Part shown: positions 9,580-64,000 of the stretch, piece by piece
Layout of the letters: every line of letters begins with the position of its first letter
Numbering within the stretch: the stretch's first letter is position 1
Source of the DNA: an uncultured bacterium
Lineage (GTDB): Bacteria > Omnitrophota > Omnitrophia > Omnitrophales > Aquincolibacteriaceae
Assembly (NCBI GenBank): GCA_964508905.1
Contig: CAZDVO010000004.1
Location: forward strand, 11,956-75,955
Reading direction: 5' to 3'
DNA length: 64,000 nt
Made by a program: the position numbers and the translations under genes
The notes under the pieces: model-generated
The model's input: only the letters and a program-made list of their open reading frames with translations
Told to the model about the DNA's origin: nothing
Database searches by the model: none

Positions 9580-9593
9580 CGGATTTCCAGTCG

Positions 9594-32515: not shown

Positions 32516-32534
32516 CCCTGTGTTGTCATGGTGA

Positions 32535-33554: not shown

Positions 33555-33557
33555 AGA

Positions 33558-34166: not shown

Positions 34167-34175
34167 CTCTTCTTG

Positions 34176-34639: not shown

Positions 34640-36154
34640 TCATCTTCCCTTTTTCAGCTTTTGAAGCCGGTTAATCCCCTTCTTTGTTAACCGATATTTT
34701 TGCAATCGGCTGTTCGGCTTGTCGGGACTCGTGTACTTAACGTATTTTTCATCCAGCAATCCGCGTATAACTTTGTTCAATTGACCCGAAATGCCCTTTT
34801 GGCCTAGTCCCGCAGAAATGCTGGATTTACTCGAGATCTTGTTCTCCAAAAGAAGTAATACCCGGTCATCAAGCAACTCTGGCTGTGACTCTAGCCGTGA
34901 CTCTGGCTGTAACTCTGGCCGCGCCCTTGCCATTTTTGAGGCGCTTTTTCGCCACACCGTCAGGATAAAGAAGCCGCTCTCTAAACGGAACTCCGGCGCT
35001 TTCAGCCCGGCCTTCCGGCAATTGTCGAAGATATCAACAGTGCCGGTACCGGCTTTTTCGATATATTTCGTCAGGAAAAGAGGCTCTGCGATGAGTGGGT
35101 TCCCGGGCTGTGACGAATGCGGCTTGGACAGCCCGGCGATCGTAAGCGATGGAGGCAATGTCCCGGGATTCCAGATTTCAAGACGGTCCGCAAAAAGCAT
35201 GATCTCAACACTGGCATTGCTTGTGTAATCACGATGCGCCACCGCGTTGACGATACCTTCAGCCACAACCTCTTGGGGGATATCATACTCGACAGGCGCT
35301 TGCGGCCCCTTAGCACGAGTCCCCACAAAACGGTTGAGTTTCGACATCACAAAGTCAACGGCCTGATCGACCATCTCGAAGACCGTCCCCCGGTATATCT
35401 GATACGAAGCTATCGGCTTGAGTTTCTGCAGGCCATGAAAGTGCATGCACTTGACTTCGGAAGAAATAAGGAAACGCTGGGGCTTCTTACCGAATAAAAG
35501 TATCCCCGCATGGTTCGGCTTGTCTTTATCCAACAGATCCAGATGCGCCAGAACATCCATGACCGGCGTTCTCTCATCCAAAGCGAAGTCGCGCGCGTTC
35601 TTGGCACGTGTGAGAAACCAGCGGATCTTTTCCTCTGAAATATCCGACTTTGCGGAACCTCTGGAGGCCGTGGCGTCAAAAGGTCCTGTCATAATCCTGC
35701 CTGTCTCCAAAAGATGGCTTACGAGACTGGCATATACCGCAGCATTCAATTCCGGCAACGAATTAAAACGGCGTCGGATCAACTGATCCCCTGCCGTTTT
35801 CAACAACTCAAGCATTTTGGGATGACGATCCGCATCGCTTTCGCCCTTAACAAAAATCAACCGGCATTTACCGAGTTTAGACGCCAACAGGAACTCTTCA
35901 TGCGTCGGAGACCGTCCTTCCCGGTTCTCTTTGCCGTAATCGTCGCCGAATAGCCCGAGATAAATATCGCTCGCGCCGACTTCCTTCAAATAAACCTCAT
36001 CAGCCCGGCGATCACAAGCCGGAAGGTCTTCGAACAGAAAAATATCGAAAAACCTTCCCAACAGAGGATCGCCGGATATGTAATCCTTTAATCCCCTGCG
36101 CGCGTCCTTGAATTCCTTCTGAACGCTACTGATGAATATCTTGCGCTTGGTCAT
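34640..36154 (-). CDS. DUF4062 - AlbA_2 (Schlafen-like) - HATPase_c_4 - wHTH protein (paralog 1)
   Basis: The N-terminus 'KIFISSVQKEFKDARRGLKDYI...DIYLGLFGDDYG' is DUF4062-like. The middle 'VAEGIVNAVAHRDYTSNASVEIMLFADRLEIWNPGTLP' is the RecG-C/HATPase_c_4 signature; the C-terminus has a wHTH. The ATG at 36154 carries the SD GGGGAAGG; the ORF track starts at GTG 36172. Confidence 0.75.
   Translation of the reverse strand: MTKRKIFISSVQKEFKDARRGLKDYISGDPLLGRFFDIFLFEDLPACDRRADEVYLKEVGASDIYLGLFGDDYGKENREGRSPTHEEFLLASKLGKCRLIFVKGESDADRHPKMLELLKTAGDQLIRRRFNSLPELNAAVYASLVSHLLETGRIMTGPFDATASRGSAKSDISEEKIRWFLTRAKNARDFALDERTPVMDVLAHLDLLDKDKPNHAGILLFGKKPQRFLISSEVKCMHFHGLQKLKPIASYQIYRGTVFEMVDQAVDFVMSKLNRFVGTRAKGPQAPVEYDIPQEVVAEGIVNAVAHRDYTSNASVEIMLFADRLEIWNPGTLPPSLTIAGLSKPHSSQPGNPLIAEPLFLTKYIEKAGTGTVDIFDNCRKAGLKAPEFRLESGFFILTVWRKSASKMARARPELQPESRLESQPELLDDRVLLLLENKISSKSSISAGLGQKGISGQLNKVIRGLLDEKYVKYTSPDKPNSRLQKYRLTKKGINRLQKLKKGR
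34884..34931. repeat. In-frame 12-nt tandem repeat (x4) inside paralog 1 linker
   Basis: aactctggctgt / gactctagccgt / gactctggctgt / aactctggccgc; it encodes the PELQ/PESR/LESQ linker between the HATPase_c_4 and wHTH domains. Confidence 0.7.
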
Positions 36155-36172
36155 TTTGCCTTCCCCTGCCAC

Positions 36173-36290
36173 TCGATTAAAAAAGCCATGAACCTTTGCG
36201 GATTATACCAAAGACCCTACGGGTAGAGCTTAAAAAGTATAGCGCAAAGACGGGTGTAAGCGCGAGGCCAATGGTCAGCCAAAGTCCTTA
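36173..36290. repeat. Conserved ~120-bp upstream segment shared with 63297..63417 (about 90% identical), including a recombinase 3'-end remnant
   Basis: Aligns base-for-base with the region upstream of paralog 2. In copy 2 this DNA encodes the last ~20 codons of the serine recombinase ('...HWPRVYTRLCAILFKLYP*'). Copy 1 keeps '...HWPRAYTRLCAILFKLYP*' with its stop codon, but no recombinase body precedes it. Confidence 0.7.
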
Positions 36291-36395
36291 TGGACACTTT
36301 TTTTCTATCCGTAAACAACGATTTTTCCAAAATGACTCCCTTAGTTTTAACCTTTTTGAAAAAATTTAAACGGGTAGATGATATTTCAAAGTTGA

Positions 36396-39300
36396 TTACG
36401 CGGCAATAGCAACAATGAAGTTGTTATCGTAGGTTCGCTGTAGAGCGTCCAGAAGGCTTTCTTCCACGGTCCAGAAACCGCCCTCTTGTCTTACCTCCGG
36501 CATGCGGATGTCTTCCCCTCCTGAAATGGCCCAAAGAAGCGCCATTGCGAGCGAGCCGCTCTTGTCACTATTCATTTTGAAAAATGACACTCGCTTACGC
36601 AGGCTACCGATCGACGTCCGCGAAGGCAGGACTTGTTTTGATAAATGAACGGTGGGGACATGAAATCTTGAAAAAACGTTTACTGCTTGATCAAGATTAC
36701 GCTCCGTTCTCGTAACGCGTTCAAGCTTAAGGAGCGCTGCCAGCTCTTCATCATGAACTTGCCCGTTTTCGTTATAAACAATGATGCGCGTTTCCGATCT
36801 TGAAAGCGCCACGAACAGATATTCCTGCTTCTGCGCTTCCGACAAACTCCCCCAATCCTCCGCATCCAAAAATACCGTCACCGGTTGCGTATTTCGACGA
36901 ACATTCTGAATGATTTGATCGCTTGGACCGGTGCTCACTCCGGGGATTGTCTCCATGCGCGTCTCGCTCCGCTCCCTAGGAACCCTGTTAGGGGAGCGAT
37001 TCGAAGGCACACGTTTTGGAGACCCGTTAAAACCGATCGCAACAGATTCTATGGCGGATTCGTGCTGTCCCGGAGAAGTTCTCAACGCGCGAGCTTTAGA
37101 GCGAGTTTCCCGGGCAGCTGATGCTGCAGGAATATTCCGGAGCTGTTCGGCTTCGCGGTCGGGATACTGCGCTAGAAATTCGTCACGCCACTTAATCACG
37201 TCATGCTCAGTAGGCGTCCAAAGACTCCGATACCAAGTCTTATCCTCCGGATAGTAATCCCGATGCAGGGGGTGAACTTTTTTGCCGGACAATAAAAATT
37301 GGACGCGCCTCACAAGAACCTGGACCAGCGCATAAAGCCGGTAGATCAAAGCCTCCACGCCCCTAGCCTGGCGCTTCAGATTTTTCGGTAAATAAGAGTC
37401 GTCCTTCGCGACAAGAAGCTTCCACTGTTTTTTTTCCGGCAAATACGCCACGACGTTGATACCGACATTCTGGGAGAAATCCGCAAAACCTCGCACCGCC
37501 GTATATTTTTTGACGGAAATTTGTCCAAAGGCCATCAATAGCGCAAGGATGGATCCGCCATGCGCTCCAATAGCTACGGTTTTTCCCTTAATTGAAGGGC
37601 TGTTTAATAAATCCTGAGAGAATTCCCGAAGGTCGCCCATCATTCCGGCCAATGAATCCAACTGCAAGGTGGTAACGGCTTCTGGGTATCGTTCGAAAAA
37701 ATTTTCTGGGTCAAAAATCACTTTGGCCATTTTGCCCGGAACACCTGCGACAGGGAATATACTGGTTTCAGCCAAACGAGAATCGACCGGCATGACACCC
37801 TGGCGCCCGCGACGCTTCCATAAGGGATACAGGGTTTGGTATGCCCTTTCCGAATCGCTGGATACAAAAATATCGAACGGAATTTTTGCGAGAAATTTAT
37901 CCAGGGCCTGGGCCTGTTTCTTTCCGCGAAAAGTTCCGGGGGAGAAACCATAACGTGTTTGCGTGACCTTCGTCAAATTTGAAATCGACTCTTGATGACG
38001 GATCGCATAGACCACAACCGCGTCAGGATGTGCTTCCCTCCAACCCGAATGCCAAAAATCCAGAACACTTCCATATTCCGGCGTCAGAAACGCCTTTTGT
38101 TCGGGGGTTAACTCACGATGAGGTTCCAGAGAAGTTGCCAAATCGCGCATTTCGGATCGGGGTTTTACTGCCGGCTCTTGCCCAGCAACGTCAGGCGTAT
38201 CCGCCGCCGCGCGGTCGGGCTCGGCCCCCTTCATCGCCGCTCCATCGCCCGGCGGGTTGTCTGTAGCTGTTTTTGCCTTGATAATTTTGAAAGCCGCGTC
38301 GACTTCTTCTAACAATAACGGCATCTCCTTCCCATTGAACATATCGACTATCTCACGACTAGTTATTTCTCTGCCCCTGTTTTGTTTAGTCACTTCAAGC
38401 CATTGATTAAAAATAAAGAGATCTTTGTCCGGGGAATTTATTGATAACTGTTTTATCAAAACAGGTAGCCCGATAATAAAGCCACGGTATCTATCACTGT
38501 CAAAACGAGGGTTACCTCGAATGATCTTTCTGTTTTCCGGAAGTTTCCCCATAATAGAATCTTGAACAAGTTCCGGCAAAATCATTAAAATATCCCCATT
38601 CCGAATACCAGACAACGCATCGCGAATGGCCATTGCTGAGGCGCCTTCATAATTCATGCCTCTTAAAAGCGTCTCTTGAAATAAATTTTCCTTTCTCGAA
38701 CTCTCCGCCGCGTTAACCTCTTCGGGAAGCAATTCGCTATCATGCGGCTCGCGCTCACTAAATAAAACATTGATAAAAACATTGTTAGTTTCTAAGAAGG
38801 CCTTATGCTTCCTCAAAAGTTCGGAAAACTTTAAAAGAGTATCAGGTTCTGGTTTCCCGTCTTTTATCTTCGCCCTATACTGATGCGTTCGCTCCCATAA
38901 TTCATAATCAGGCGCGAAATAATGCCTATGATCTGATCCTCCCAGATTGAAAGCGTAGAACCTTCCATTTTTTCTGCCCACGTTCAACTTAATCAGATCA
39001 ATAAAATCTGACTCTCCATCCGTAGAAGTCCCCTTTCCTATATCGCTGTATTCAAAGATATCCTTCACATAGCCCGTCATAAGAGCGATAAACTCAGCCA
39101 CAATATCATGCCTCTCTTCAATGGTCCTTCCGATGGCACCCTTCCTGTCATCCGCCCCCTGAACGCGAATAACCCCTATATCGGCCTTGCTTTGTACCAT
39201 GGCACGAAACATAGCCTCAATATGCCCGAAATGCAATGGATTGGCGGCTATAGAATAATAAAGCATTTTTGCATCCCCTGAATCCTCATCCGAACTAGTC

Positions 39301-42300
39301 AGTACGGGCGAACGATCATTGATCCGCACTCGAACATGCCGAGTTTCGCCATTGAGCCGCAACACAGCCATATTCCAAATTTGTAATTTTAAACGTCGGG
39401 CGATCAGCTCTGCTTGGGCTCTTTGAAATGAACTACGCGGCTGCCTTATCATGTCTGAGATCGCCTGATTAAGGCCAACAAAATCCCCTCCTATGAGTGC
39501 CTTTAATTTTTCCGGTCGGTAAATGCTCCTAGCATATTCAAACTCCTGATAAACCTTTTCATCCGCTGACCCACGATATAAAGCATGAATAAATGCCCTC
39601 GTGAGAGAAGCTTTGTCTTTCGATCGTTTCAAGCGTTTGAGGAACGAGGTTTCCATGTAGATCTTGCTGACGCCATTTTCCCTTACCCTTGCGATTCCGA
39701 AAGTAATTTTATCAGTCTCGATCAAATAGACCTTACTGTCTTCCTTAATTCCTAAAAAATCCTTTGCCACATTCAATTCTCTGTCAAATTCCACGGTCGG
39801 CCTTTCGGATCTTCTGGCCGCAGCCAGATTTTTCCTGAGCTCAAACAAGGACATTCTTTCATAGTAGCCATGATCAGCTAAGCGAACATTACGGTTTGCC
39901 AGCATTTCCAGAACATCCCGCATTAGACTGCGGCTATAAAACTCAATATTATCTGATCGATAAACAACCTCATGCTGATCTTCATTAAGGCGAATTGTCA
40001 GAATCGAGCTCTTCCCTGACGGGCCAATGAAATAGATCTCCCATCGATCACCCTGTCTTTGGGCCTTCTCAAAGCGCAGATCAACCCGTTTAGCGATCTC
40101 TTGCCCCAGCAATGCGGGAAATTCATCTTTGTTCTGAAGAACAACAAGATGGTCAAAAGAATCTAGATCAAAAGAAGAAATTTTCTTTTCAAGAGCACCC
40201 GGCGCCGGATCTCCTTTGTCAGACCCTTTGATAACTTTCACTACAGGCGCAAATTCAGCTCCTAGCTTGGAGAATTTCTCGTCTATTCCATCCGCTATCG
40301 CTTCGGATATCTTTCTATAAACCCATGGATCAGTTTCATCTAAATAGCCGGCCACTTCGAAGCCGCGCTCATGAAGACCGTACGATGTCGCCCCATCATC
40401 CACCGTTGTTACCAAAACCCCGTTGGGCAGTATCATTAAATATTTATAGGTCTTTTCTTCCTGCAGGGTCTTGTTCATTCGAAGGACCTGATCCGCAGTA
40501 AAAGAGCTATCTTCGCGAGCAAGGTACGCACGCACTCTTTCCCGCATCAGTTGAACAGCCTCATCATGAAGAAGGGCAAATTCATCGTAGGTTATCCCCA
40601 GAGATTTCTTGAGTTCATTCGGGAAACTTTTGAGCGGCTGAAATATATTGCATTTCCATATGGGAGGCCGTATCGACGGGTAGTGTTGTTTTGTTTTATT
40701 AAAAACATCCAAAATAATACCTTCAACATAAGGCAGGAGATCCGTCTTGACCTTATCAATGTTTTCTCTCGTAACCGTGGTGGTTATCACGATTTCTATA
40801 TCTTTATCCCTCTGAGCAGCGATTGTCTTGATGCTGGCTATTACTTCCGGCCATAACAAAGGGATTTCCCCTCTGAATGAATGCGGGTCGACCGTATCCA
40901 AAGAAAAACAAAACTGATCGACATAACTGATAAATTTTTCTAAAGGAACAAGATGCGTGCTCTTCCGGTCTTCTTTATAAAGCTCAATAAAGATCTCGCC
41001 CCCGACCTTTTTAAATTGCAGGCCGTTCGTGTTAACAAAAACCTTCATTCCTTTAGATTTTACATAAGCAATAATTTCATCAAACCGAGGGACTATAGTC
41101 GGTTCGCCGCCGCTAAAGGATATGCCTTCAATGCCTGTCTCAGCCAAAAGGTTAATGGTATGCAATATTTCTTTAAAAGACGGCTCCTTTGTCCCGTATT
41201 TAGCGATCTCTTTCTGTGAATAAAAATTTCTTGCCCAGCATTGCCGGCATTTTAATTGACACCGCAGCGAAGGAAGAAAGTCTATAAGTGAAGCGAATGT
41301 CCCTTCCCGGAAAGGGACTGCTCCCTCGGGGATACTCTTGTGTTGCCGGGCTAATAATACAGCTTGAGGCTTTGCTGCTTCCCGCATCTCGGAGCGGGCG
41401 GTTGTATTTTCCGGATTCTCTTTTTCCGCCGCAACTTTTGCTTTCAGGCGTCTGACCCGCTCGTCTATTCTCTCGATCTCCGCATCGTAGTACTCCCGGA
41501 CCTTATGATGCCTGGCCGCTTCTTTCTGGGATCTCAAGATATTTTTAACACCTTCCATGTCGATCTCATAATCCCGGAGCGCGTGCTCCCGGTCGTCCCT
41601 CCACGCCGCCTCGACCTTTCGATCGATCTTTTCTTCCTCCCCTCGTCTTTCAAAAGTTCGTTTCAGATACTCATGGTCAGCATCATGCGAAAGAGCCACC
41701 ACCTCTTCCGTGCTCAGGTCGAAGATCAATTCAGGGTTGTTACCAAAAACTTCAGGATGGGCTTTTGCGGTCTCGATCATGAGAGGATGCATCTTTTTCT
41801 GATAGCGGGTAATCAGCTGATGGGCATCCTCCATGAAAGAAAATTGTTGGACGTTGAGGGAGACAATCTTCCTGAGCGTTGGATAGCTTCCCAGGATAGT
41901 CATGAATTTCTCCTGATTTTTTTCTTCCTTAGCTTTCTCACCTCGGAGGTACTGTATCGTTTGGGATATTTCATCATCCAGCGCCTCCATGCTGACCGAA
42001 GGCTTCTCGCCGGCATTCGACATCCTGATCCTCGTAAAAAGTCGCAACGCGAGAAAAAGTTTCAGATCCAATATTCGGATCTTTTCACGAATGGTTTTTT
42101 CCGACTTAAGTTTCCAGACATCAACGGGTTCCCCATTCTTATCGCAAAGTCTTTCGATCAGCCGCAAAAGCTGGGGGGCCGCAATCGTTTCCGCTAAGTC
42201 CGAATCGGAAGCAAGGTTTGCTTGAAACTCATGCAGAAATGACACTTCATCATCACCTTTCCGGATATCTTCATCAGAAGCTTTGTAGTTATGCATATAA

Positions 42301-45300
42301 TCCGCCAGCGCCTGATAAACATCTCCCGTCCTCCGGGCGCGGGCATCTCTGACCCTTGTTTCGATGGCGCCAAGCGCTCCTTCTTCAAAAAGTTTCATGA
42401 CAGCCGCATCTTCCCGGATCATCTCCTCAATGGCGGCTACTTCTTTTACCTTATCCCAATGGGTCAACTTTTTCATCCAATGCTGTTCTGTTTCAGGCGT
42501 TAACTGAAGCGCCGCTCTCTCCAAACCGGCACGACTCATTGACAATTCGAATGCGTTAAAAAACCGCGCCTGCGGATACCAGAATTTATCCTGAAAAGTC
42601 GCGTGAAATGGTCGCGCAATGTGCATCCAAGCCAGCAATTCCACTAACCATGCCGTAGCCTGTTGCATCTGGCCACCACTTAAAAGCCCGCTGTCGGGAA
42701 GCCCACTAAAGAAGGCGTCTGCCTCCATGAACCGCTCAACACGCTTCTTGAGGACCGAATCGTAATCAACCAATTCCCGCCGATACAGCGGATTCTGAAG
42801 TCCGCTAGGTTCATTAATAAGCAACGAGTAAATGATCCTGTCCTTAAATTTTCGAGGCATGGTTTTGAATTCGTTTGTTTTGAATAAATTATTGAGCATT
42901 TCGGCGTATTTTTCAAAAGCCCGGTAATAATAATCCAGTTCAAAATAACCAAACTCTGTCTTGGGGCGCCCCCTCCACTCGCCTTCAAAATCCGGCATGT
43001 AGTTCTCTTTACCACCCTCCCTATAGAACCCTTCGAAATCTCCGTCGCTAAGCCAGACATCCCTCGGCTTAGGCGCGGGCTTAGCCAAAAGCTCCGCCGC
43101 TTGTTTCCACATTTTAAGTTCAATGCGAACTGTTTTGACCTTAACCGCGGGAGGCATTCCGTCATCCCGATAGTAGATGGTCCTTGTCCCGGAATCGAGT
43201 ACGACGGACTGATCGTCAAATTTCTTCAGGTCTTCGACCGCATTTTTAGAACCGACAACACATGCCTTATCCCGCTCACGAGCCGTTACCGCCGCATGAC
43301 TGGTCGTATTTCCGTTCTCCGTGATAACTCCCGCCATTCTGAAAAAAGCATTGTCCCAGCTGTTATCCGTCTCCTGGGTCACGAGAATATCTCCGGCCTT
43401 GATCTTCCGCGCGATTCTTTGGCTTTCGGCACGCTTCTGATTCTCTGGCAGATCCATACGAACCGGCCTTACTCTCAAAACACCGATCGCGACGCTCGGG
43501 AAACCGACAACAGCATCTCCAGGTAAAGTCATTTTTTTTACGGTGCTATCCATATCGCTCTCATCCACTGTCTTGATCTCAATAAAGCCAGCCTTGCTAA
43601 TGGTCGTTTCAGGCCGTGTCTGGACAACATGGATGACCCCCGATTTATCTTGCGCGAATTCAATATCCACGTTGGCGACATCCTTCATGGAGTTATATTT
43701 ACTCCGAATCCTCTGGGATATCTTCGCCAAACGCATAACAGCTTCCATCTCCAGAGAAGGCATCATTTGTTCATGCGGATCCGTGATCTTAACTCTCACA
43801 GTGCCATGCTCTCCCGTTATGATCTTCTCCGTCTTTGGCTGAGGCTGCTCCTCAAGAATGGTTTGCGCGTCAGGACTAATTGTCCACTCATCCGCCAAAC
43901 CAGACCCTGACACCACGCCTTCACCCAGTCCGGGCTTGGCATTGATCCTGAAAGCAGGTCGACCGGTCGTGGTATCCACGGAAAAAACATTGCCAGCCGA
44001 CTTAGCATCCACCATTTTTAATATCACAACCGGCATCATGGGAGTTTCTGTCATCTGATTCAAGATCCTGTAATTCACGAAACCACTATTAAAAAGACTG
44101 GCCCACACCTGAATAACAGCTCTGCTAACCTGCTTCGTATTATTCCTAGCCAGGACGCTATCTGCTTTTCCTGCACAAGCTGCCTTTGAGGAATCTTCAA
44201 CGCTAGCCGAACTCCTAACGGCAACACTGACCTCGGTCGCATCGCCTTGAAGGGATCCCATCATTTTCGAGATATCTTCCAAGAGTGGTTTGGGCAATCT
44301 GACCAACCACCGGATCCCAGTTCGGATCATCCAAGCCTCTATTTGAATTTCTCCTTGGAGAAACAAATCCAGGAACCAAAAGCGGGCTCCCGCAATAAGC
44401 TTTCTCCAGGCGGACAGTTCATTTTCCATCGCCTTGGCTTCCTTTGCCTTGCGATCCCTCAGAACTATCAGCTTCAAAGATAAAATTCGTAATCGTTCGA
44501 TCAGTGCTCCCAAAAACGGATTCCTTAAAACAACTTTTTTAAATACCTCAGCGCGAAGGATATAACCTTCCGGGACCCTCACAGGGTCAGAGACATTGTC
44601 CCGAGCTTCTTCAGCGGCAAGCATTCGCAGATAATGAAGATTGGCTCCCTTCCCTCCGGATACCGATTTATTGCCGCTGTCAGGATGGTCCAGATGGACC
44701 AAAGACTGACCAATCTCGAGGGGGAGATGTTCTGATACTGAAATATTCCGAACAACTTGCCTGGAAACAGTTTCGTAAATAGCATCGCTAATACTGGGTT
44801 GTAAATTCTCTTTTGCAGAAGATTCCGCTGAGAAAGGAACTGAAAGATCGCTGGCCAAAGCTGCGCCTTCTTCTCGTAGCTTGTAAAAAACATCCCACCA
44901 CAGCCTGAATCCATAGGCATCCGCGTTCAGGTTCTTCAATTCGTCCTCGGTCATAGGCATTTTTTCCCTATCGGCGAGTTTTCTCGGCTCTCTGAACTTG
45001 TCTGCCACCTTTTGATCTTCTAAAGCATTCAGGAAATAAGTGAATAAAGTGCCGGTTTCGAAGATTTCGGCCGGAGGTAATAATGGTACTGATGTTGCCT
45101 GTGCGGCTTCTTGTGCCAAACTGGCAAGCGCCTCACGTAGAGCTGTATCATTTTTTGTAACATAAATGACAAGCGCATGTTTTACAGGATCGTAATCCAG
45201 AACCAGCTCTTTACTGACAAGATCCTTTTGCTTTTCATAAAAAGAGCTCAGCTTACCGGCCTCATTCGTGTTCAAAGCCTGAAAGGTATAACTTTGAATG

Positions 45301-50415: not shown

Positions 50416-50468
50416 CGTCGTTCCTTTTCCGTTAGGCGGGTATTATACGCATTTATTTTTCGTACGCA

Positions 50469-55804: not shown

Positions 55805-55807
55805 GTG

Positions 55808-56644
55808 TCAGACCGTTCCAAGATAAGCGTCTGCTGGCATCCCGGGTTTTAGTTCGAATTCTGGATTTTCAATTATTATTTTTACGCGATAAACGAGCTT
55901 GGTTCGTTCTTCTTTCGTTTGAATATGCTTAGGCGTGAATTCCGCCTCTTGCGAGATAAAAGAAATACGACCCTTGTAGACTTTGTCAGGATAGCTATCA
56001 ATCTTGATGTCCGCTTTTTGATTTAACTTCACTTTTCCAAGATCTGTTTCATTGATATAGGCCGTGAGCCAAACACTTTCCAGATCGGCCACCGTAAATA
56101 TCGTGCTCCCCACCTGCACGTTTTCCCCGACCTCTGCGCTTCTAACAAGCACAAAACCATTCAACGGTGCTACTAGATCCGAATACCCTAGCCTTAATTG
56201 AGCCAACTCAAGCGAGGACTCAAGTTCATCCCATTTTGATTTTGCCATATCCCGGCTCGTTTCCGTGGCATCTTTCTTATACTCGGGAACAGAACCCACC
56301 TTAAAAAGATTCTCCGCGCGCTGCAGATCTTCTTCGAGCCTTTTATAGCTGAATTTCGCTTCTGCCGCTGACGCTGCCGCCTTAGCTTTGATCTTGATTA
56401 ATTCTTCAGTGTCAAGCTTTGCAACGATGTCCCCTTTCTTTACATAATGCCCCTCGTCGACCATCATTTCCTTGATTCTCCCAGCAACCTGAAAAGACAA
56501 TCGCACCTCGGTTGCTTCGATATTACCCGAAAGACTGAGGATGGCGTGCGGATGTTGACTCCGACGCAAAAAATACCCTCCCAATTGAAATAAAATAAAA
56601 AATACAACCACGGCAGCTCCAATAATTTTGATTTTAGTTTTCAT
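55808..56644 (-). CDS. HlyD-family membrane fusion protein
   Basis: N-terminal TM, coiled-coil hairpin and a beta-barrel C-terminus; sits between the TolC-like gene and the ABC ATPases. Confidence 0.85.
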   Translation of the reverse strand: MKTKIKIIGAAVVVFFILFQLGGYFLRRSQHPHAILSLSGNIEATEVRLSFQVAGRIKEMMVDEGHYVKKGDIVAKLDTEELIKIKAKAAASAAEAKFSYKRLEEDLQRAENLFKVGSVPEYKKDATETSRDMAKSKWDELESSLELAQLRLGYSDLVAPLNGFVLVRSAEVGENVQVGSTIFTVADLESVWLTAYINETDLGKVKLNQKADIKIDSYPDKVYKGRISFISQEAEFTPKHIQTKEERTKLVYRVKIIIENPEFELKPGMPADAYLGTV

Positions 56645-58062
56645 TTTTTTGTCTCCTCGAATGGACTACGGCCTATGGACTTATCCAAGTAGGCCAGAGC
56701 AACAATGTAATCATAAATGGCGTCTGAAAGGTTCTTCTCGATCTGGCTTAAAGAAATCTGTGCATCCAAAACGTCAAGATTTGTGACTTGCCCCTCAAGA
56801 TAGCTGGCTTCAGCAATTTTCAGGGCTTCTCGTGCACTTTCAACACCCTCCTGCGCGGAATCAATAATAGTTTTCGCCTCAGACAAATCAAAGCAAGCGT
56901 GTCTGATTTCAAGAACGACTTGGTCTTCCACGTCCTCTTTCTTAATGATTGTCTGGGAATATCGCGCTTTAGCTTCATCCACTTTGACCTTTGCCGAAAA
57001 TCCATCAAAGATAGGGATAGTAACCCTTACCCCGATATTCCAATTATTGTGCTGAGAATTAAAAACATCCTTCATGAAAGCATCGGATTTAGAATAATAA
57101 TTGAATTCCCCATTTATCTTCGGCAGCCATCCGGCACGAGCGATTTTTATCCCCTGCTTATCCGCATTAATCTCAAGAGAACGCATCTCTAATTCCGGCC
57201 TCATACTCTGCGCTTGTTCCAAAAATCGATCTTCATCGATTTGAATCAAAGTATAAGCAAGCTCCCCTGTAAGCAAAATGACATCCATCCTTTCCAACCC
57301 CAAAAGTTTTTTCAACTCCTCAGCGATCAGATTCTTTGCTTTTTGGGCTCTTGCGAGTTCGGGCTCGACTTTGGAAATCTGAACCTTGGATTGAAGCAGA
57401 TCGAATCGTGAGGCAGCTCCCTCCCTGAATCGCCTCTCAACGTCCATGTAATGGGACTTTGCCTGGCTTACTAATTCCCCGTTAATTCGTTCCGTTTCAT
57501 AGGCCAGAAGAAGACCGTAATAAAGCCTTTTCGTTTCAAACTCAACGGCATGTCTACGGACCCGAAAAGACTCTTCCTGGATCTTTAATTCGATCCTTGA
57601 ACGTTTGAATAGAGCGAGATTCTTGCCTCCTTCAAAAAGCGGTTGACGGGCTGAAACTCCTAAATCATTCTGATTGTTATAGCCGACAAACACTCCGATA
57701 TCTTTCTTCGAAACTGCCGCTGGGCCGATGCTCATGACGGCGTCCTGATGAGAATAGCCTCCATTCAAGTCAATTTTAGGCAATGATTCACTGACCGCAC
57801 CGAAAATTCTGGCCCTTGCAATTTCAATTTCTTTTTCCTGGGCCAAAATTTCTTTATTGTTCTTGAAAGCTAACGCGACGGCATTCTCGATCGATAAATT
57901 ATGAATAGTACTCACACGGGACTCCCCACCGTAAGCACAGGGAGCGATTGCAACCACCATAACTAAACAAATCAGCCCTTTGTGAGAATACCTCTTAAAA
58001 ATATTTTCCACGCTTTCTTCCCTTTCTTTGAAGGCGAAAACCGGTAGCCCGAGAGGACCCAC
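56641..58062 (-). CDS. TolC-like outer-membrane efflux protein
   Basis: 473 aa with a signal peptide (AYG|GES) and duplicated OEP repeats. The annotated start overlaps the TetR 3' end; the true start is uncertain. Confidence 0.8.
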   Translation of the reverse strand: MGPLGLPVFAFKEREESVENIFKRYSHKGLICLVMVVAIAPCAYGGESRVSTIHNLSIENAVALAFKNNKEILAQEKEIEIARARIFGAVSESLPKIDLNGGYSHQDAVMSIGPAAVSKKDIGVFVGYNNQNDLGVSARQPLFEGGKNLALFKRSRIELKIQEESFRVRRHAVEFETKRLYYGLLLAYETERINGELVSQAKSHYMDVERRFREGAASRFDLLQSKVQISKVEPELARAQKAKNLIAEELKKLLGLERMDVILLTGELAYTLIQIDEDRFLEQAQSMRPELEMRSLEINADKQGIKIARAGWLPKINGEFNYYSKSDAFMKDVFNSQHNNWNIGVRVTIPIFDGFSAKVKVDEAKARYSQTIIKKEDVEDQVVLEIRHACFDLSEAKTIIDSAQEGVESAREALKIAEASYLEGQVTNLDVLDAQISLSQIEKNLSDAIYDYIVALAYLDKSIGRSPFEETKK

Positions 58063-58604
58063 TGCATCGCGATCGACTGAATAAGCCCCACAAACGTGTC
58101 TGCTGCAGCTTCCGCATCAAGATCGTCGGAAAAACAGCGACATTGGATTCCCCGCTTGAGAATATCTTTAATTTCACCGGAATACCCCATCATATGCCGG
58201 TTCAGCGCCAAGGAAATTTCAGGCCCTGCGCGATACACATTTTCGGAGAATATGATCCGCGGATAATATCTGTTCCGCTCAATAAATTTAATATGCCGCA
58301 TGAATATTTCTTCCAGAGACTCCAGAGGTGTGCGATTTTTACACGCATCTTGAACGAACTTCTGGAGAGCCGCGCCGATCCGTTCGATTACAGATCCCAC
58401 AACTGCGTCTTTCCCGGCAAAATGCCGGTAAACATTACTGTTGGTCATTCTCGTCTTTTTTGCGATGGATTCGATCGTGAGGCCCTCAAGAGCCTTTTTA
58501 TTCAAAATATCTAAAACGGCTTTTGTAATTTGCCTTTTCCGGACATGCGTTTTTGTTTTTTTAGCCATCGTGACTTTCGTCTTTATTATGTGAATGTTAT
58601 TCAC
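57972..58604 (-). CDS. TetR-family transcriptional regulator
   Basis: 'ILNKKALEGLTIESIAKKTRMTNSNVYRHF' HTH. The start may be the internal MAKKTK at ~58568. Confidence 0.85.
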   Translation of the reverse strand: MNNIHIIKTKVTMAKKTKTHVRKRQITKAVLDILNKKALEGLTIESIAKKTRMTNSNVYRHFAGKDAVVGSVIERIGAALQKFVQDACKNRTPLESLEEIFMRHIKFIERNRYYPRIIFSENVYRAGPEISLALNRHMMGYSGEIKDILKRGIQCRCFSDDLDAEAAADTFVGLIQSIAMQWVLSGYRFSPSKKGKKAWKIFLRGILTKG

Positions 58605-58851
58605 ATATTAGCACAGCCTTGAACAAAGTAAAGCAAAAGCTTTCTAACGCAAGGAGGCTCCCCGATCTTTTACCGAGGCATGCTGCTACGCTTAAGTGTA
58701 GGCTTGGCCCTGCCAAGTAGCTATGGGGTATTTGCCCTAGAAGATTGAGGAGGGGAAGTCAGGCATGCGGCCGATATCAACCGCAATTTTTCATGATTTG
58801 CCGCTATTGCTAATCATAATTGCAAATGAAATTACAAACCTGAATCTCCCG

Positions 58852-59418
58852 TTATTTTTCTAAAACAATTCCGTAATGGTAGGGCTTCAGGTCATACATC
58901 TTTGGAGAATGAAACCCTGCTTGCTCTGCCCATCTAATACACTCTTCCGGCTTGGGACGTATCTCCATCGAAGGGCCACGTGGTGTTGACGGATCGTAAT
59001 TCCAATGGATGGCCCCAAGCTTTCCACCACTTATCATTACCCGATGAGCCTCTTTGAGCAACACTACCGGGGTGTCAAGATGCAAAATATTAAAAAGCAT
59101 CACATAATCCACGCTCTCAGCAGAAAGCCCAAAGCCATCCGTGAGGACATCCCGCAACGCGGCTTCCACATTATTCAGCTTGGCCTTTTCAGCTTCAGAT
59201 TTTATTATACGGATCATCTCCTCATCAACGTCATACGCATAGATCTGGCCGCTGATCACTTTCGCAACAGGTATCGTGAACGTACCATAGCCGCAGCCGA
59301 CCTCAACGACATCACAAACTCTTGAATCCAGCTCCATATTTGGCAAAACCCCTTGGATATCAAAAAGGTTCTCCCACACGCACCGATCCGGCATACCACT
59401 ATCCCGAATCTTCATCAC
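58852..59418 (-). CDS. Class I SAM-dependent methyltransferase
   Basis: 'VVEVGCGYGTFTIPVAK' motif I. Confidence 0.78.
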   Translation of the reverse strand: MMKIRDSGMPDRCVWENLFDIQGVLPNMELDSRVCDVVEVGCGYGTFTIPVAKVISGQIYAYDVDEEMIRIIKSEAEKAKLNNVEAALRDVLTDGFGLSAESVDYVMLFNILHLDTPVVLLKEAHRVMISGGKLGAIHWNYDPSTPRGPSMEIRPKPEECIRWAEQAGFHSPKMYDLKPYHYGIVLEK

Positions 59419-59741
59419 TTTTCTTTTTGCATTTCCGACGGATTGGGCGTCTTAAACACCAAAAACGTGGCCTCAATACTACCGATGTTCTTAATAATCA
59501 TCGGCGTCTGATAAGAAACTGGCAACAGATCACCTTCTTTGACATGACTATCCAGACCGTTAAGATTAACCGCTAAATCGCCCCTTACAACCAGCAGATG
59601 AACATTTGAATTAGCGTTATGCTGAGGCACACTTTGGCCGGGCTTTAACGCTATCTGCATAACAAGCAGATGTTTCTCATCAACGACTTTGCGATTCCCC
59701 ATTTTATCGTCATTGTAGGGAATATTTTCTAATACATTCAT
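59415..59741 (-). CDS. Cupin-domain protein
   Basis: The beta-barrel motifs 'HNANSNVHLLVVRGD' and 'GDLLPVSYQTPMIIKNIG' suggest a cupin fold. Start taken at internal MNVLEN to avoid an 88-nt overlap with hcp. Confidence 0.55.
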   Translation of the reverse strand: MNVLENIPYNDDKMGNRKVVDEKHLLVMQIALKPGQSVPQHNANSNVHLLVVRGDLAVNLNGLDSHVKEGDLLPVSYQTPMIIKNIGSIEATFLVFKTPNPSEMQKEK

Positions 59742-59760
59742 CAATAACTCCTTTGTCCGT

Positions 59761-61437
59761 CTATTTTCCCGACATGATAGCAGCGACATCCTCATCAACA
59801 GTACCAATCGGCTTAATGTCAAACTTCTCAACCAATACCTTGGCAACATTCGGAGAAAGAAATGCCGGCAATGTAGGCCCTAAACGTATTCCTTTAACGC
59901 CAAGATAGAGCAAGGCAAGAAGAACAGCTACCGCTTTTTGTTCATACCACGCTATATCGTACGATATAGGCAATTCGTTAATATTTTTCAACCCGAACAC
60001 TTCTTTTAATTTCAAGGCAATAACCGCCAACGAGTAGGAATCATTGCACTGCCCGGCATCAAGGACACGGGGGATACCTCCGATTTCGCCCAACTGCAAT
60101 TTGTTGTAGCGGTACTTGGCACACCCCGCGGTAAGGATAACCGTGTCTTTCGGCAGTTTTTCCGCAACCTCAGTAAAATAATTGCGTGAGGGGTACCTCC
60201 CATCGCACCCGGCCATAACCACAAACCGTTTTATCGCTCCGGATTTAACCGCAGCAACAATTTTATCCGCAAGAGCGATCACCTGATTATGGGCAAAACC
60301 ACCGGTAAGGGTTCCTTGTTCCAATTCATCCGGAGCTTTACAGGTTTTCGCCAAGCGAATCACTTCTGAAAAATCTTTTGCCCCGTCTTTTTTCCGGTCC
60401 GAGATATGTTTGGCTCCAGAATAACTTACCACTCCGGTCGTAAACAACTTATTCAAATAGGTATTTTCCTTTTTTATCGGAATCAAACAGTTGGTAGTCA
60501 AAATAATAGGGCCGTTAAACGACTCAAATTCTTTATTCTGACGCCACCACGATCCGCCGTAGTTTCCGACAAAATTTTTATATTTTTTGAAAGCCGGATA
60601 ATAATTAGCTGGGAGCATCTCACCATGGGTATATACATCAATACCTGTACCCTCTGTCTGCTTAAGCAATTCTTCCATGTCCTTAAGGTCGTGGCCGCTA
60701 ATCAGAATACCGGGATTCTTGCGAACTCCCAGATTAACCTCCGTTATTTCAGGATGACCGTATGTAGAAGTATTTGCCTCATCCAAAAGTGCCATTGTTG
60801 TAACCGCTCCTTCCCCGGCCTTCATCACCATGGCAACCATTTCATCAACAGACAGATTACGCAACGTAGAATCCAATGCATTCATAATAAAGTCGTACAC
60901 ATCGTCTTTTTCAAAGCCTAAGACAGCGGCGTGGTCAGCATAAGCCGCAATCCCCTTACATCCGATAATAAGCAACTGGCGCAAAGACCTGACATCCTCA
61001 TTGTCGTTGACATTAATCCTGAGGTCGTCGGATTGGGCTTTTGCAAGGATCTCATCTTTTTTATCGAAGCTCCATACCGCGCAACCAGGAAAAACTTCTG
61101 AAAAATCTTGCCCATATTTCTTTTTGTGCGCATCCAAGAAAGTCTTCTTTATCTCATTCCTGACCGCAATGCCTTCCTTAATTCTAACAATTATCGCGTC
61201 ATCATCCCAAGCGGCATTAGTTATAGTAACAAACAGTGACTGGCAAATGAATTTTCCAAACTTTTTATCCACCGATTCAATTTCCTTAAGGCGCCTGCCG
61301 AAAAACGAAATCCCCTTACACACTTCAATAAGCAAATCTTGCAAACCAGCGGTTTCTTCGGGCTTCCCACAGACTCCTTTTATCGCGCAACCGATATTTT
61401 TTGCAGTTTCCTGACATTGAAAACAAAACATTCCCAT
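59761..61437 (-). CDS. hcp: Hydroxylamine reductase / hybrid-cluster protein
   Basis: N-terminal '[23 protein letters not shown]' cysteine cluster and overall Hcp length (558 aa). Confidence 0.9.
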
Positions 61438-61724
61438 AACACCCCCCTTTTTAGAAATAAATCTTTTACCACTTTTATTCAGGTCTTTGTTTTAAAGTTC
61501 TTCTCAATATTAATTCCCTTCTTCTTTCTGTCGATAGGCTAAAAACCATTTCCCAAGATTGCACAGCCAATCATTTTCACATCGAATTCGAAAATTCACG
61601 GCATTCCGCTCGCTCTCAGTTTCATATCATATCATTTCCCCGTGCTTCCGTTTCCCTTTTTCCAAGGAGACACAGCTCTTGAGGCCTTTCATCCCCCGGT
61701 CAGAATCCATACGGCCTTCATGAA

Positions 61725-63278
61725 TCACAACTTTGCCGTGAAGCACGCAGCCCTTTTGCGCCCTTGTAAATACGCAACCCCTTTTTCCGTCAACCGGTAC
61801 TTCTGATTACTGCTTTGGGGTTTGTCAGGAACCGTCATTTCGATCAATCCCGCATCTGCGAGAGGACTAAGCACCTGATGCCTGAACTTGGTGCGATCTG
61901 TCCGCCCAGTGATCTTCATGAGATCGGCTATCCTGCTCTCAGCCTGACACTTATGCAATATCTCAACTTGGTGCTGACTTAGTGCCAACTTGGTGCCGAC
62001 TTGGTGCCGACTTGGTCCCTGAACCTCGTGGGTGATGGGCCGGGCTTTCGGAGGGGCCTTCTTCTTGCGACGGATTATCAGGACGAACTGACCTCCCCGC
62101 TGCTGAAACGAAGGCTCCGGGATCTTCATTTTCTTGCACAGAGCGATCATGTCGATCGTTCCGGTTCCCGCCCGTTCAATGTATCTCGCCCAGAAAAGCG
62201 GATCACTGATCAGCGGGTTTCTCGGCACAGAGGCATGGGCTTTCCGTAGGGTCGCCGGCGTCATCCCTTCAGGAAGTGCCCCTGGGTTCCAGATCTCAAG
62301 TCGATCCGCAAACAGCATGACCTGAACGCCTGCGTTGGATGTGTAATCCCGATGCGCGACCGCGTTAACGATTGCTTCGCGGATCACCATTTTGGGTATC
62401 TCATACGATACATCACTCGCAACAGCGGTTTTGCTGGGCGTGACCGTGCGATCCAGTTTACCGAGCACGAAATCAACAGCTTCATCAACCTGTTCGAACA
62501 ATGTTCCCCGGTAGGTTTGGTACGAAGGGATCGGCTTTTGCACCTCGGTCCCGTGAAAATGCATACATTTAACCTCGGCACATAACAGGGCGCGGAACTT
62601 CTGGGGATTCCTGCAGAACAACAGGACCGCGGCATGCGTCAGCTTGCCGTTATTGAATAGGTTCAAATGAGTGAAAAGCTTTTTCGCCGAAGTGCGTGGC
62701 GGCAAGGGGAACTTGCGTTCGGCCCGGGCAGCCTCAAGAAAATTCCCAACGGCAGATTCGTCAATGTCGCCCAAAACAGCATTGCGGCAGGAAGCAGCAT
62801 CGAACGGAACGGTCTGCAAAAGACACTGCTCCTCCAAATACTGCACAAGGGCTGCATACAGTTGCGAGATCAATTCCGGGGCGTTGGAAAACCTCCGGCG
62901 AATAACCTCGTTGCCGGCTCTGTTGATCAATTTAGCTGTTTTAGGGTGACGGTCTTTTTCAGTCGTGTTTTTGACAAAAAGAAGCCGCGTCTTTCCGCGC
63001 TCCGTCGCCTCCCTGAATTCCCGCTCCGTAGCCGAAGATCCGCGGGCATCTTCAGCTCCGTATTCATTGCCGAGAAGACACACATAGATATCGCAATCCC
63101 TGACTTCATCGATATAGACGGCGTCCGGCCTGCGGTCCTGGGCGGGAATATCTTCGAAAAGAAAACAGTCAAAGTAGCGCCTGCACAAGGGATCGCCGGA
63201 GATAAAATCCCTCAAGGCGGCCCGCTCATCCTTGAACTCCTTCTGAACGCTGCTGATGAATATCTTGCGCTTGGTCAT
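61725..63278 (-). CDS. DUF4062 - AlbA_2 - HATPase_c_4 - wHTH protein (paralog 2)
   Basis: Same start peptide 'MTKRKIFISSVQKEFKD' and the same domain order as paralog 1; 'VMLFADRLEIWNPGALPEG'; ATG at 63278 with a conserved SD. Confidence 0.75.
   Translation of the reverse strand: MTKRKIFISSVQKEFKDERAALRDFISGDPLCRRYFDCFLFEDIPAQDRRPDAVYIDEVRDCDIYVCLLGNEYGAEDARGSSATEREFREATERGKTRLLFVKNTTEKDRHPKTAKLINRAGNEVIRRRFSNAPELISQLYAALVQYLEEQCLLQTVPFDAASCRNAVLGDIDESAVGNFLEAARAERKFPLPPRTSAKKLFTHLNLFNNGKLTHAAVLLFCRNPQKFRALLCAEVKCMHFHGTEVQKPIPSYQTYRGTLFEQVDEAVDFVLGKLDRTVTPSKTAVASDVSYEIPKMVIREAIVNAVAHRDYTSNAGVQVMLFADRLEIWNPGALPEGMTPATLRKAHASVPRNPLISDPLFWARYIERAGTGTIDMIALCKKMKIPEPSFQQRGGQFVLIIRRKKKAPPKARPITHEVQGPSRHQVGTKLALSQHQVEILHKCQAESRIADLMKITGRTDRTKFRHQVLSPLADAGLIEMTVPDKPQSSNQKYRLTEKGVAYLQGRKRAACFTAKL
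61967..62021. repeat. 11-nt tandem repeat (x5) inside the coding sequence of paralog 2
   Basis: cttggtgctga / cttagtgccaa / cttggtgccga / cttggtgccga / cttggtccctg. The unit length is not a multiple of 3. Confidence 0.7.
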
Positions 63279-63296
63279 TTTGCCTTCCCCTGCCAC

Positions 63297-63417
63297 ACGA
63301 TTAAAAACGCCACGAACCTTTGCGGATTATACCAAACTGCTCACGGGTAGAGCTTAAAAAGTATGGCGCAAAGGCGGGTGTAAACGCGGGGCCAATGGCC
63401 ATCCGAAGGTGCGCAAA
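63297..63417. repeat. Conserved segment paired with 36173..36290 (overlaps the 3' end of the recombinase-2 coding sequence)
   Basis: About 90% identity to copy 1 across ~120 bp. Confidence 0.7.
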
Positions 63418-64000
63418 AGCACACGTAGCTTCTTCGGGCTTTTGCCTCCGGAATCGCCTGTTCTTTCGTCTTTTCGCTCGTTTTCAACCATTTCATCCCC
63501 TCTTCATAGCAAGTCTTCCACGGCTCATTCAACTCAAACTTCACGATCTCCTGATTCTGGATAGTGATCGACTTGAAGACAATCCGCATGAACGTCTTTA
63601 TGAGATAATCCAATTGGTGATTGTCGCTCTCGGGCGTACTCCGCAATCTTAAAAGAAAATCCTGCGTCGCCTTAACCAGATTGACGGAATTGCGCTTGTC
63701 CAGAATCTTAAGATGAATAGCCTTGATATCCTGCTTTAGTTTTTTCTCCTCATTGCTTAAAAGCTCGGCTCGCTCTTTATAGAGCCCCATGTTTATTTTG
63801 TCTTCTGAAAATAACTCGTATATGGCCTTCTGTTTTTCAACATTCTTTCTAAGTAGCGCCTCTTTTTCCTCCAACTGCTCCATATATATCCGTTCCGGCT
63901 CGGATGCGTTAAGCCGGATCATGTCGCCTAATTCTTCCAGCACGTGAAGATTTTTCCTGATGACTTCAACAATATCCCAGACCTGCTTATTAACAGCGTC
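63341..64000 (-). CDS. Second large serine recombinase, C-terminal part (gene continues beyond the window end)
   Basis: The C-terminus 'FKSITIQNQEIVKFELNEPWKTCYEEGMKWL...CFCAPSDGHW' aligns with the C-terminus of recombinase 48616..50415 ('FKKLVIDHQQIASFELYEPFQGMYDKAL...CLLKPSDDKW'); the open frame continues to the window edge. Confidence 0.7.
   Translation of the reverse strand, partial: DAVNKQVWDIVEVIRKNLHVLEELGDMIRLNASEPERIYMEQLEEKEALLRKNVEKQKAIYELFSEDKINMGLYKERAELLSNEEKKLKQDIKAIHLKILDKRNSVNLVKATQDFLLRLRSTPESDNHQLDYLIKTFMRIVFKSITIQNQEIVKFELNEPWKTCYEEGMKWLKTSEKTKEQAIPEAKARRSYVCFCAPSDGHWPRVYTRLCAILFKLYP

Follow-up and report, generated by a model that had tools for sequence, protein, structure and literature searches.

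The DNA analysed here, called the window, comprises 64,000 nt from an uncultured Omnitrophota bacterium (assembly GCA_964508905.1, contig CAZDVO010000004.1, positions 11,956-75,955 of the forward strand). Its part from 31.7 kb to the end at 64 kb is very probably an island that arose by repeated integration of large serine recombinase elements, and of cassettes without a recombinase, into the 5' end of a gene for a MiaB/RimO-family methylthiotransferase (MTTase). We read the 32-64 kb region as a tandem array because the sites at its boundaries carry the MTTase start and because recombinase-MTTase fusions occur in relatives. The G+C content falls from 0.55 in the core to 0.44-0.49 at about 31.7 kb and is low in every unit up to the window end. 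An earlier note on this DNA had described a mobile, island-like segment with large serine recombinases and repeats at recombinase-associated boundaries. This general picture is supported by the present analysis, and the comparison of synteny has shown that related strains differ exactly at the repeat boundaries. Comparison contigs are designated by L-numbers (L001-L109), and homologous proteins by P-numbers (P0077, P0120).

The MTTase gene and the five recombination sites are the following; a slash in a sequence marks the junction.

30276..31754, minus strand: MTTase gene, the chromosomal target (Pfam UPF0004, Radical_SAM and TRAM)
31705..31746, minus strand: site S0, the current MTTase 5' end and the right-hand junction of the array, with the putative crossover approximately at TG (31705-31706) in the Cys codon
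34337..34374, minus strand: site S1, ATGAAAAAAGTTCTCCTAAAGACTTTTGGATG/A, a relic of the MTTase start with a 'beta'-type left arm behind it (found by nhmmer)
36268..36312, minus strand: site S2, decayed MTTase-5'-like arm ..AAAGTGTCCATAAGGACTTT-GGCTG/ACCATTGG, between the giant-gene cassette and DUF4062-1
48694..48739, minus strand: site S3, in the 3' end of rec1, ..CAGTCGTGTTTATTAAAACCTTCGGATG/ACAAATGG, recombinase frame ..QSCLLKPSD/DKW...
63392..63435, minus strand: site S4, in the 3' end of rec2, ..GTGTGCTTTTGCGCACCTTCGGATG/GCCATTGG, MTTase frame GTG-CTT-TTG-CGC-ACC-TTC-GGA-TG (MLLRTFGC)

The likely start codon of the MTTase gene is the ATG at 31739, and the protein begins MNKKVLLKTFGCQMNAYDS. 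The recombination site is present five times in the window (at 31705, 34337, 36276, 48702 and 63400), each time as a copy of the first ~11 MTTase codons (MNKKVLLKTFG/CQMN). An 18-nt core motif, CYTTCGGMTGGCCATTGG, which stands at the start of the repeat block described below, was found in three instances in the window vs 0.29 expected, the third of them (48694-48711) inside the 3' end of rec1. A nhmmer profile built from ~50 nt left of the junction in ten aligned instances found two sites de novo, one at 34336-34374 (E 5.7e-6) between DUF4062-1 and AbiEi, the other at 31705-31736 (E 1.9e-4) within the first MTTase codons. The aligned left arms read M(N)K(K)VLLKTFG. At the junctions that do not involve a recombinase gene they are copies of the MTTase start, such as ATGAAAAAAGTTCTCCTAAAGACTTTTGGATG/A (MKKVLLKTFG, then a stop) at 34337-34368 and ATGAAAGTTTTGTTAAAAACATTTGGATG/A in L015. 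Where the left arm is of the recombinase type (..CAGTCGTGTTTATTAAAACCTTCGGATG/), it encodes ..QSCLLKPSD in the recombinase frame, and the same nucleotides read in the MTTase frame (GTG-TTT-ATT-AAA-ACC-TTC-GGA-TG) give MFIKTFGC, a replacement MTTase start. The identity of all arms switches around the TG of the Cys codon; at S3, the similarity of the window to L022, L102, L108 and L013 stops at 48694/48695, and the right arm of S1 resembles those at L013 982 and L015 1885. For the crossover, the TG in the conserved Cys codon or its immediate vicinity is the probable place, and TG the predicted dinucleotide.

Two recombinase genes belong to the array.

48616..50415, minus strand: rec1, which closes element E4 and encodes an intact large serine recombinase with Resolvase (1.2e-36), Recombinase (7e-20) and Zn_ribbon_recom (1.1e-10) domains
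63341..64000, minus strand: rec2, a distinct second gene, probably for a large serine recombinase, of which the C-terminal 219 codons are present; last gene of an element that continues beyond the window

Rec1, which the earlier note had already recognized as an intact large serine recombinase, has the domain set of this family (Resolvase, Recombinase and Zn_ribbon_recom), and ..YIRVSTEDQ.. is visible in its translation. The C-terminal part of rec2 could be aligned with the corresponding C-terminal regions of rec1 and the L005 recombinase (27%), P0077 (34%) and the truncated recombinase of L015 (35% amino acid identity).

MTTase orthologs were found directly after a recombinase in L015, L022, L102 and L109. 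L022, from a Candidatus Omnitrophota metagenome-assembled genome, has the closest MTTase locus among species-representative genomes. Its positions 7283-10030 match window positions 51471-48695, and with the next base the match continues as 31715-30289, i.e. in the MTTase gene. The L022 recombinase is 92.8% identical to rec1 at the amino acid level and ends with ..PSDAR and a stop, whereas the MTTase that follows reads (M)FIRTFGCQMN. In L102, a recombinase of 86% identity is fused to the MTTase, the cargo is a type I restriction-modification (R-M) system, and the downstream core genes are those of the window. A recombinase/MTTase junction is also present in L109. The recombinase of L103/L104 (46% identical) is joined to an MTTase gene in a different neighbourhood and accompanied by relaxase-like and MT-A70 cargo, and in L015 an N-terminally truncated rec2-like recombinase (..RSYVVFCSHSVVR, then a stop) overlaps the MTTase start. 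The recombinase thus lies beside the element end, joined to the conserved target, in independent genomes (L022, L102, L103/L104, L109 and L015). When genome contigs were searched with the MTTase, most matches were distant MiaB genes of 36-41% identity that lacked a recombinase, and L022 alone was informative. The truncated L015 recombinase (4951-6006, 351 aa, rec2-like) has the Recombinase and Zn ribbon domains and lacks the whole catalytic Resolvase domain; the L015 element therefore appears to be decayed and immobilised.

The ends of the recombinases show the same relationship across the family. With a cut-off of E ≤ 1e-30, 1081 homologs of rec1 were counted, and those named are from Omnitrophota. 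Among the best 120 of these 1081, 86 end with x[ST][DAV][VA][RK] and a stop (e.g. PSDVR), which is the -1-frame reading of (F/Y)GCQMN with the TGA within CAG-ATG-AAC as stop codon. Tails longer by 15-25 aa, with the common pattern (G/D)(R/H)W..Y.., were found in 24, and the other 10 were fragments or oddities. The called product of one homolog, P0120, runs in frame into an MTTase N-terminus (..VFIRTFGCQMNDADSEV.., PF00919), which points either to an artefact of gene calling or to a junction with a frameshift or fusion.

In the mechanism that we propose, the elements would enter the MTTase gene at its 5' end, where T-F-G-C-Q-M-N is encoded. A complete element would consist of a conserved left arm, cargo which in this lineage would often open with a DUF4062 gene, and a large serine recombinase as the final gene, pointing towards the MTTase. 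The attachment site would lie within the recombinase open reading frame (ORF), ~20 codons before its end. In the integrated state the recombinase ORF would enter the MTTase gene and stop at the TGA in CAG-ATG-AAC (tail ..PSDVR), and the MTTase would regain a start and its first ~8 codons from the recombinase 3' end, read in another frame. In a circle, or with the next element behind it, the recombinase ORF would run into a left arm and acquire a tail of ~18-25 aa (..GHWPRVYTRLCAILFKLYP, then a stop). Every new integration would leave the earlier MTTase 5' end behind as a relic, and this would explain why the MTTase-start motif is found at every boundary. The two ~172-nt repeats described below would be the 'alpha' left arm occurring twice, at the head of E4 and at the head of C2. 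Rec1 and rec2 are the likely catalysts of the integration events, and the cassettes that have no recombinase may have been mobilised in trans.

The sites divide the island into the following units.

48704..63399, minus strand: element E4, 14.7 kb, from the alpha left arm to rec1
36278..48701, minus strand: cassette C3, 12.4 kb, the giant gene and its flanks, no recombinase of its own
34339..36275, minus strand: cassette C2, 1.9 kb, DUF4062-1 alone, bounded by S1 and S2
31707..34336, minus strand: cassette C1, 2.6 kb, G+C content 0.47, no recombinase (Pfam, PADLOC)
33558-34166, 32535-33554 and 31823-32515, minus strand: the C1 genes AbiEi (DUF6088), AbiEii and PRiA4_ORF3, respectively (Pfam; PADLOC AbiEi/AbiEii)
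36396-48422, minus strand: giant gene, 4008 aa, with PPDK_N and PEP-utilizers (residues 1256-1744), radical SAM (2385-2533) and His_Phos_1 (3471-3670) domains

Read along the minus strand, the order is rec2, S4 (~63400), E4, S3 (~48702), C3, S2 (~36276), C2, S1 (~34337), C1, S0 (~31705), MTTase and core genome. E4 contains, after the alpha left arm, DUF4062-2, hcp, a 144-aa ORF, a methyltransferase, TetR, OEP, HlyD, two ABC ATPases, two ABC-2 permeases, a conserved region of ~1 kb (50416-51471) and rec1. The island has the features of an accretion array: a copy of the target end at each unit, units without a recombinase (C1, C2 and C3) and a content that varies between strains. C1 carries an AbiE toxin-antitoxin/abortive-infection pair, the hcp and efflux genes of E4 are not defence genes, and the cargo of neighbouring strains at these junctions includes R-M, Fic, Vsr/Dcm and RhuM genes. 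Similar arrays were found elsewhere. In L015 the order is HATPase_c_3, site, RhuM, site, DUF4062-2-like gene with the truncated recombinase, and MTTase. L013 and L109 are parts of one 39-kb contig, which holds an array from a Cache gene to a recombinase/MTTase junction (Cache, site, a third DUF4062 paralog with a recombinase fragment, site, DUF4062-2-like gene, site, and so on, up to ion-transport cargo, recombinase and MTTase).

The earlier note had regarded the giant gene plus rec1 as a possible insertion. The giant gene is indeed a separately bounded insert; rec1 is not part of it and ends E4, an assignment that follows from the giant cassette standing after rec1 at the same site. The ~27 kb between the repeats, once taken for a single cargo unit, consists of E4 (14.7 kb) and the giant-gene cassette (12.4 kb). 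In L107 a homolog of the giant gene (at least 2505 aa, 62% amino acid identity over 549 residues) also follows directly after a recombinase joint, and giant genes can therefore be considered recurrent cassette cargo. The radical-SAM segment of the giant protein matches PADLOC models of prokaryotic viperins (E 2e-12).

Two other types of system were considered and rejected. For an integron-like system, the scanned ORFs of 31.8-64 kb contained no tyrosine recombinase domain (IntI), and the sites are not attC-like. A long identical core of the tyrosine-integrase type was dismissed on the ground that no such gene is present and that adjacency to a recombinase is pervasive.

The repeats that had first drawn attention to this region lie in front of two DUF4062 genes.

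34640-36154/36172, minus strand: DUF4062-1, ATG at 36154 (Pfam DUF4062, HATPase_c_4 and Fic-like_C)
61725-63278/63296, minus strand: DUF4062-2, ATG at 63278 (Pfam DUF4062, HATPase_c_4 and Fic-like_C)
36114..36285, minus strand: repeat copy 1 ('alpha' left terminus), recombinase-tail frame HWPRAYTRLCAILFKLYP with its stop at ~36217-36219
63238..63409, minus strand: repeat copy 2 ('alpha' left terminus of E4), containing the last ~20 rec2 codons with the stop at 63341-63343

The two genes are true paralogs in direct orientation, both on the minus strand, and their proteins are 49% identical over 517 aa. The ~90% similarity reported for the DNA upstream of them was upheld: nucleotide alignments of 36285-36114 with 63409-63238 gave a block of ~172 nt and ~92% identity (83-97% per 30-nt window) with sharp edges, which is made up of ~125 nt upstream of the ATG and extends into the first ~45-50 coding nucleotides (15-16 codons, or ~13-14 codons of DUF4062-1 when counted from its ATG at 36154). 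Past the block, the identity of the two genes is 60-67% and then lower, and upstream of it similarity is at noise level. The copy 2 block overlaps the last ~20 codons of the ORF that leaves the window (63341 to 64000, ...PSDGHWPRVYTRLCAILFKLYP, then a stop). In copy 1 the same frame reads HWPRAYTRLCAILFKLYP up to a stop and lies ~110 nt downstream of the giant-gene stop.

The earlier note explained this arrangement by the duplication of a two-gene module, a recombinase and a DUF4062 gene, one recombinase copy of which had been interrupted or replaced by the giant gene and rec1. The adjacency of recombinase and DUF4062 does recur (window copy 2, L005/L008, L108 and L013), and the tail-coding frame is intact upstream of DUF4062-1. 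However, the exact DUF4062-2 protein was found on 14 public contigs, always followed by hcp, the methyltransferase, TetR and the efflux/ABC operon, and what precedes it varies: a type I R-M cluster and DUF1016 in L001 and L010, Vsr-Lipase_3-Fic in L002-4, L007 and L014, and a 591-aa recombinase in L005 and L008. Ten of the DUF4062-2 contigs and window copy 1 all diverge at the same nucleotide, 63410 of the window (= 36286), downstream of which the DUF4062-2 contigs remain 97-99% identical. Recombinases of unrelated lineages (rec2 and the rec1-like enzyme of L005, with 27% C-terminal identity) are joined to one and the same arm, most homologous recombinases adjoin an MTTase gene rather than DUF4062, and the giant cassette follows rec1 at the same site, which places rec1 in E4. 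In copy 1, the DNA just upstream of the crossover is a decayed MTTase 5' end and not a recombinase remnant. The ~20 codons that had been taken as the surviving end of a recombinase gene are present in frame, but they are a normal left arm and not a leftover of deletion or insertion. With these observations a duplicated module has become very unlikely: a recombinase ends one element and DUF4062 starts the next, and their succession is the joint between consecutive elements, or of a circularised element.

A second possibility is an ordinary duplication of the paralogs, after which gene conversion or homologous recombination homogenised nothing but the promoter and the 5' end, site-specific recombination having no part in it. 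The abrupt step in identity from ~92% to ~60-65% at about codon 15-16 is what a conversion tract would give, and in the alpha arms of L013, L015 and L108 the variants of copy 1 and copy 2 seem to be mixed as in a mosaic. On the upstream side, however, the limit of the repeat falls, to the nucleotide, on a motif found also at three further boundaries and in the MTTase start, the recombinase-MTTase fusions of relatives are left unexplained, and in L107 an alpha arm is joined to unrelated cargo, the giant gene. We consider this explanation most improbable for the repeat as a whole; gene conversion may account for its downstream edge.

Finally, the ~172 nt could be a cis-regulatory unit of the DUF4062 genes (promoter, structured leader and N-terminal codons) kept similar by selection on expression. 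A perfect extended -10-like sequence, TGGTATAAT, noticed by eye only, is identical in both copies (36202-36210 and 63326-63334), as is a ribosome binding site GGGGAAGG within the block. On the other hand, the two-hexamer promoter scan found nothing in either repeat (nor upstream of the MTTase gene), no Rfam family matches the block, variation in its first 57 nt falls mostly on third codon positions in the recombinase frame, L107 has the first ~85 nt but no DUF4062 gene with them, and a different arm stands upstream of the third DUF4062 paralog, that of L013. Such a unit is an extremely remote explanation, and integration at the MTTase 5' end, with the repeats as left arms, is the reading followed below.

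The coding character of the arm was studied in five alpha arms (the two window copies, L013, L015 and L107). In these five sequences, the recombinase frame makes 9 of the 12 codon variants synonymous, vs 2 in each of the other frames, 9 of the 13 variable sites are third positions, and the stop of the tail is kept as TGA, TAG or TAA. This pattern shows apparent selection on the tail codons as coding sequence. The recombinase of L107 is followed by the initial ~85 nt of an alpha-like arm, and beyond them lies the giant-gene homolog in place of DUF4062. Being located right of the crossover, the '20 surviving codons' are part of the left arm that opens the DUF4062-led element. The coding signal in the tail, the L107 arm and the similarity of the long tails across the family together indicate an attachment site within the recombinase ORF, and the full C-terminal tail of the recombinase would be encoded only across the element's own joint.

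Since the attachment site lies ~20 codons inside the recombinase ORF, two isoforms of the recombinase can be imagined. The excised circle or a tandem joint would produce a full-length enzyme with the conserved amphipathic tail (G/D)(R/H)W..Y.., whereas an integrated copy beside the MTTase would produce a truncated one ending ..PSDVR. The full-length form might be biased towards integration, the truncated form towards inactivity or excision, and the tail would be a built-in sensor of the integration state. This idea is tentative and we think it rather doubtful, any function of the tail being putative. If true, it would be a serine-recombinase counterpart of the integration-dependent switches of tyrosine-integrase phages, and the very large Omnitrophota family (1081 homologs, see above) would supply naturally paired, sequence-predictable attachment sites.

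Several points weigh against repeated integration as proposed here. The MTTase-type (ATG) right arms on C1, C2 and C3 are not explained by simple attP x attB integration; these units may be decayed elements or cassettes mobilised in trans. An unoccupied target (attB) for this species was not among the sequences recovered, and the short segment of L022 that bears the recombinase yielded no left junction. The junctions are known from contigs only. L108 (1-3190, 3.2 kb, Logan ERR3687827) joins a rec1 ortholog (91% nucleotide identity) to an alpha arm and DUF4062-2 (96%), as would be expected from a circularised E4-like element, a possible origin for it; a tandem array would look alike, and the L108 and L005/L008 joints could all come from tandem arrays instead of circles. 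The rec2 fragment gave no Pfam hit with the 219 C-terminal codons that are in the window, and the test for selection on the tail comprised five sequences. Similarity to E4 in other strains ends at 51857, and a rec1 ortholog at the end of their element is putative.

At this last position, ~22 nt past the last ABC-2 permease gene, L002 and L005 part from the window and agree with each other beyond it. No att-like motif was found at 51857, and the divergence is an internal cargo difference within E4-type elements. The efflux operon of the window shares no identical protein with its L002/L005 versions. No match was obtained when DUF4062-1, DUF4062-2 in its GTG-start form and the last ABC-2 permease were looked up as exact proteins, and the RNase_T gene led only to contigs shorter than 4 kb.

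The ~1 kb upstream of rec1 (50416-51471, minus strand) is conserved in L022, L005 and L102. Ahead of rec1 there is a 60-aa ORF (50469-50651), a candidate directionality factor, and TGCGTATAAT stands just before rec1. The window counterpart of a 129-aa ORF of L022 (7611-8000) is broken by a stop. In more distant elements (L104, L105) a small MerR/HTH_17-like gene occupies the position of the 60-aa ORF. The upstream edge of the conserved region is marked by an imperfect palindrome of ~140 nt (window ~51335-51475, minus strand: ..CCGCACCCGGGTATGCC..CTCGACCACGGTCTC..GAGACCGTGGTCGAG..GGCATGCCCGGGTGCG..) with counterparts at L022 7283-7410 and L102 7742-8081; the changes between the window and L022 are apparently compensatory, and the palindrome has no Rfam match.

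PF13271 (DUF4062) covers residues 5-91 in both DUF4062 paralogs (E 7e-17 and 3e-22) and is followed by ~400 aa of other domains, the C-terminal one being a Fic-like winged helix. The AlbA_2 domain (PF04326) that had been assigned to them could not be confirmed, with no Pfam match in either protein even at E ≤ 5. Their description as regulators is also doubtful because in 2026 preprints (Swarozyc / Evangelion) DUF4062 is reported to act against phages as a TIR-like NADase effector, to which variable auxiliary regions are coupled. Both paralogs have the organization of that family, an N-terminal DUF4062 plus an auxiliary region, and a candidate catalytic Glu was seen by eye in ..SATEREF.. / ..SPTHEEF... 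Residues ~200-400 of both proteins gave partial matches to Argonaute-associated PADLOC models (Aga_SIR2-PNTD1-PNTD2, pAgo; E 1e-15 to 5e-10).

The only RNA gene found in the window lies far from the island and is not involved in it.

4005-4080, minus strand: tRNA-Val (GAC)

The Rfam scan gave nothing beyond this tRNA, and a search of IMG/VR viral contigs with the conserved DNA found it absent there.

With these results each unit of the more than 32-kb island has defined ends, and the pair of repeats becomes a readable map in which the gene for the giant 4008-aa protein, the DUF4062 genes and the AbiE pair are separate, exchangeable cassettes. A hotspot can be named, the FGCQMN codons of a MiaB-family gene, which is used by a large recombinase family across Omnitrophota, a phylum with almost no genetics. 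The relationship is reciprocal: the recombinase gives the target its start codon, and the target gives the recombinase its stop codon, which may carry regulatory meaning. The family also offers many candidate recombinase/att-site pairs for genome engineering. Serine-recombinase islands at gene ends with tandem accretion are already known; the 5' MTTase target, the reciprocal ORF ends, the attachment site within the recombinase gene and the Omnitrophota host set the present island apart. Our literature searches, in the library that could be searched, returned no paper joining a serine recombinase with miaB or with Omnitrophota, and those on attP inside a serine integrase gene yielded nothing relevant.

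Among known systems, the composite SCCmec/SCC islands of staphylococci are formed by the large serine recombinases CcrAB/CcrC, which integrate at the 3' end of rlmH/orfX. The island described here shares with them serine-recombinase integration into the end of a conserved housekeeping gene that is regenerated by the element, tandem accretion with a repeat of the target end at each unit, units without a recombinase, and accessory or defence cargo. It differs in that the target is the 5' end of a MiaB-family MTTase gene, not a 3' end, that the host phylum is Omnitrophota, and that the recombinase is the terminal gene, its own ORF crossing the attachment site.

Attachment sites inside an element's own gene are known from the SSV1-type archaeal integrases, which are split by integration, and from the integration-dependent immunity of mycobacteriophages, where attP lies inside the repressor gene. 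As in these systems, integration here would alter the C-terminal coding of an element protein, so that the integrated and excised forms differ; unlike in these systems, which use tyrosine integrases, a serine recombinase would lose only its last ~20 residues. The ordered array of mostly single-gene cassettes in the same orientation, each ending in a similar recombination site, is reminiscent of integrons. Unlike integrons, the island lacks an IntI tyrosine recombinase and attI/Pc, its recombinases stand at the ends of units within the array, and its sites are direct copies of the target-gene start, not folded attC hairpins.

Tandem islands that were formed by a CcrB-family serine recombinase, are bounded by repeats of the target end and include units without an integrase have been described (PMC3146451). 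These ssrA islands of Dehalococcoides (DsiB) resemble the present one in their tandem arrangement at a single-copy gene with direct repeats of its end, in their low G+C content and in having the integrase module near one edge; their units without integration genes were interpreted as cis-mobilisable and gained by accretion (PMC3146451). The ssrA islands occupy the 3' end of a tmRNA gene and have a 20-bp repeat, whereas the units described here lie at the 5' coding end of the MTTase gene and leave a relic of ~35-40 nt, and the overlap between the recombinase ORF and the target ORF found here was not reported there (PMC3146451).

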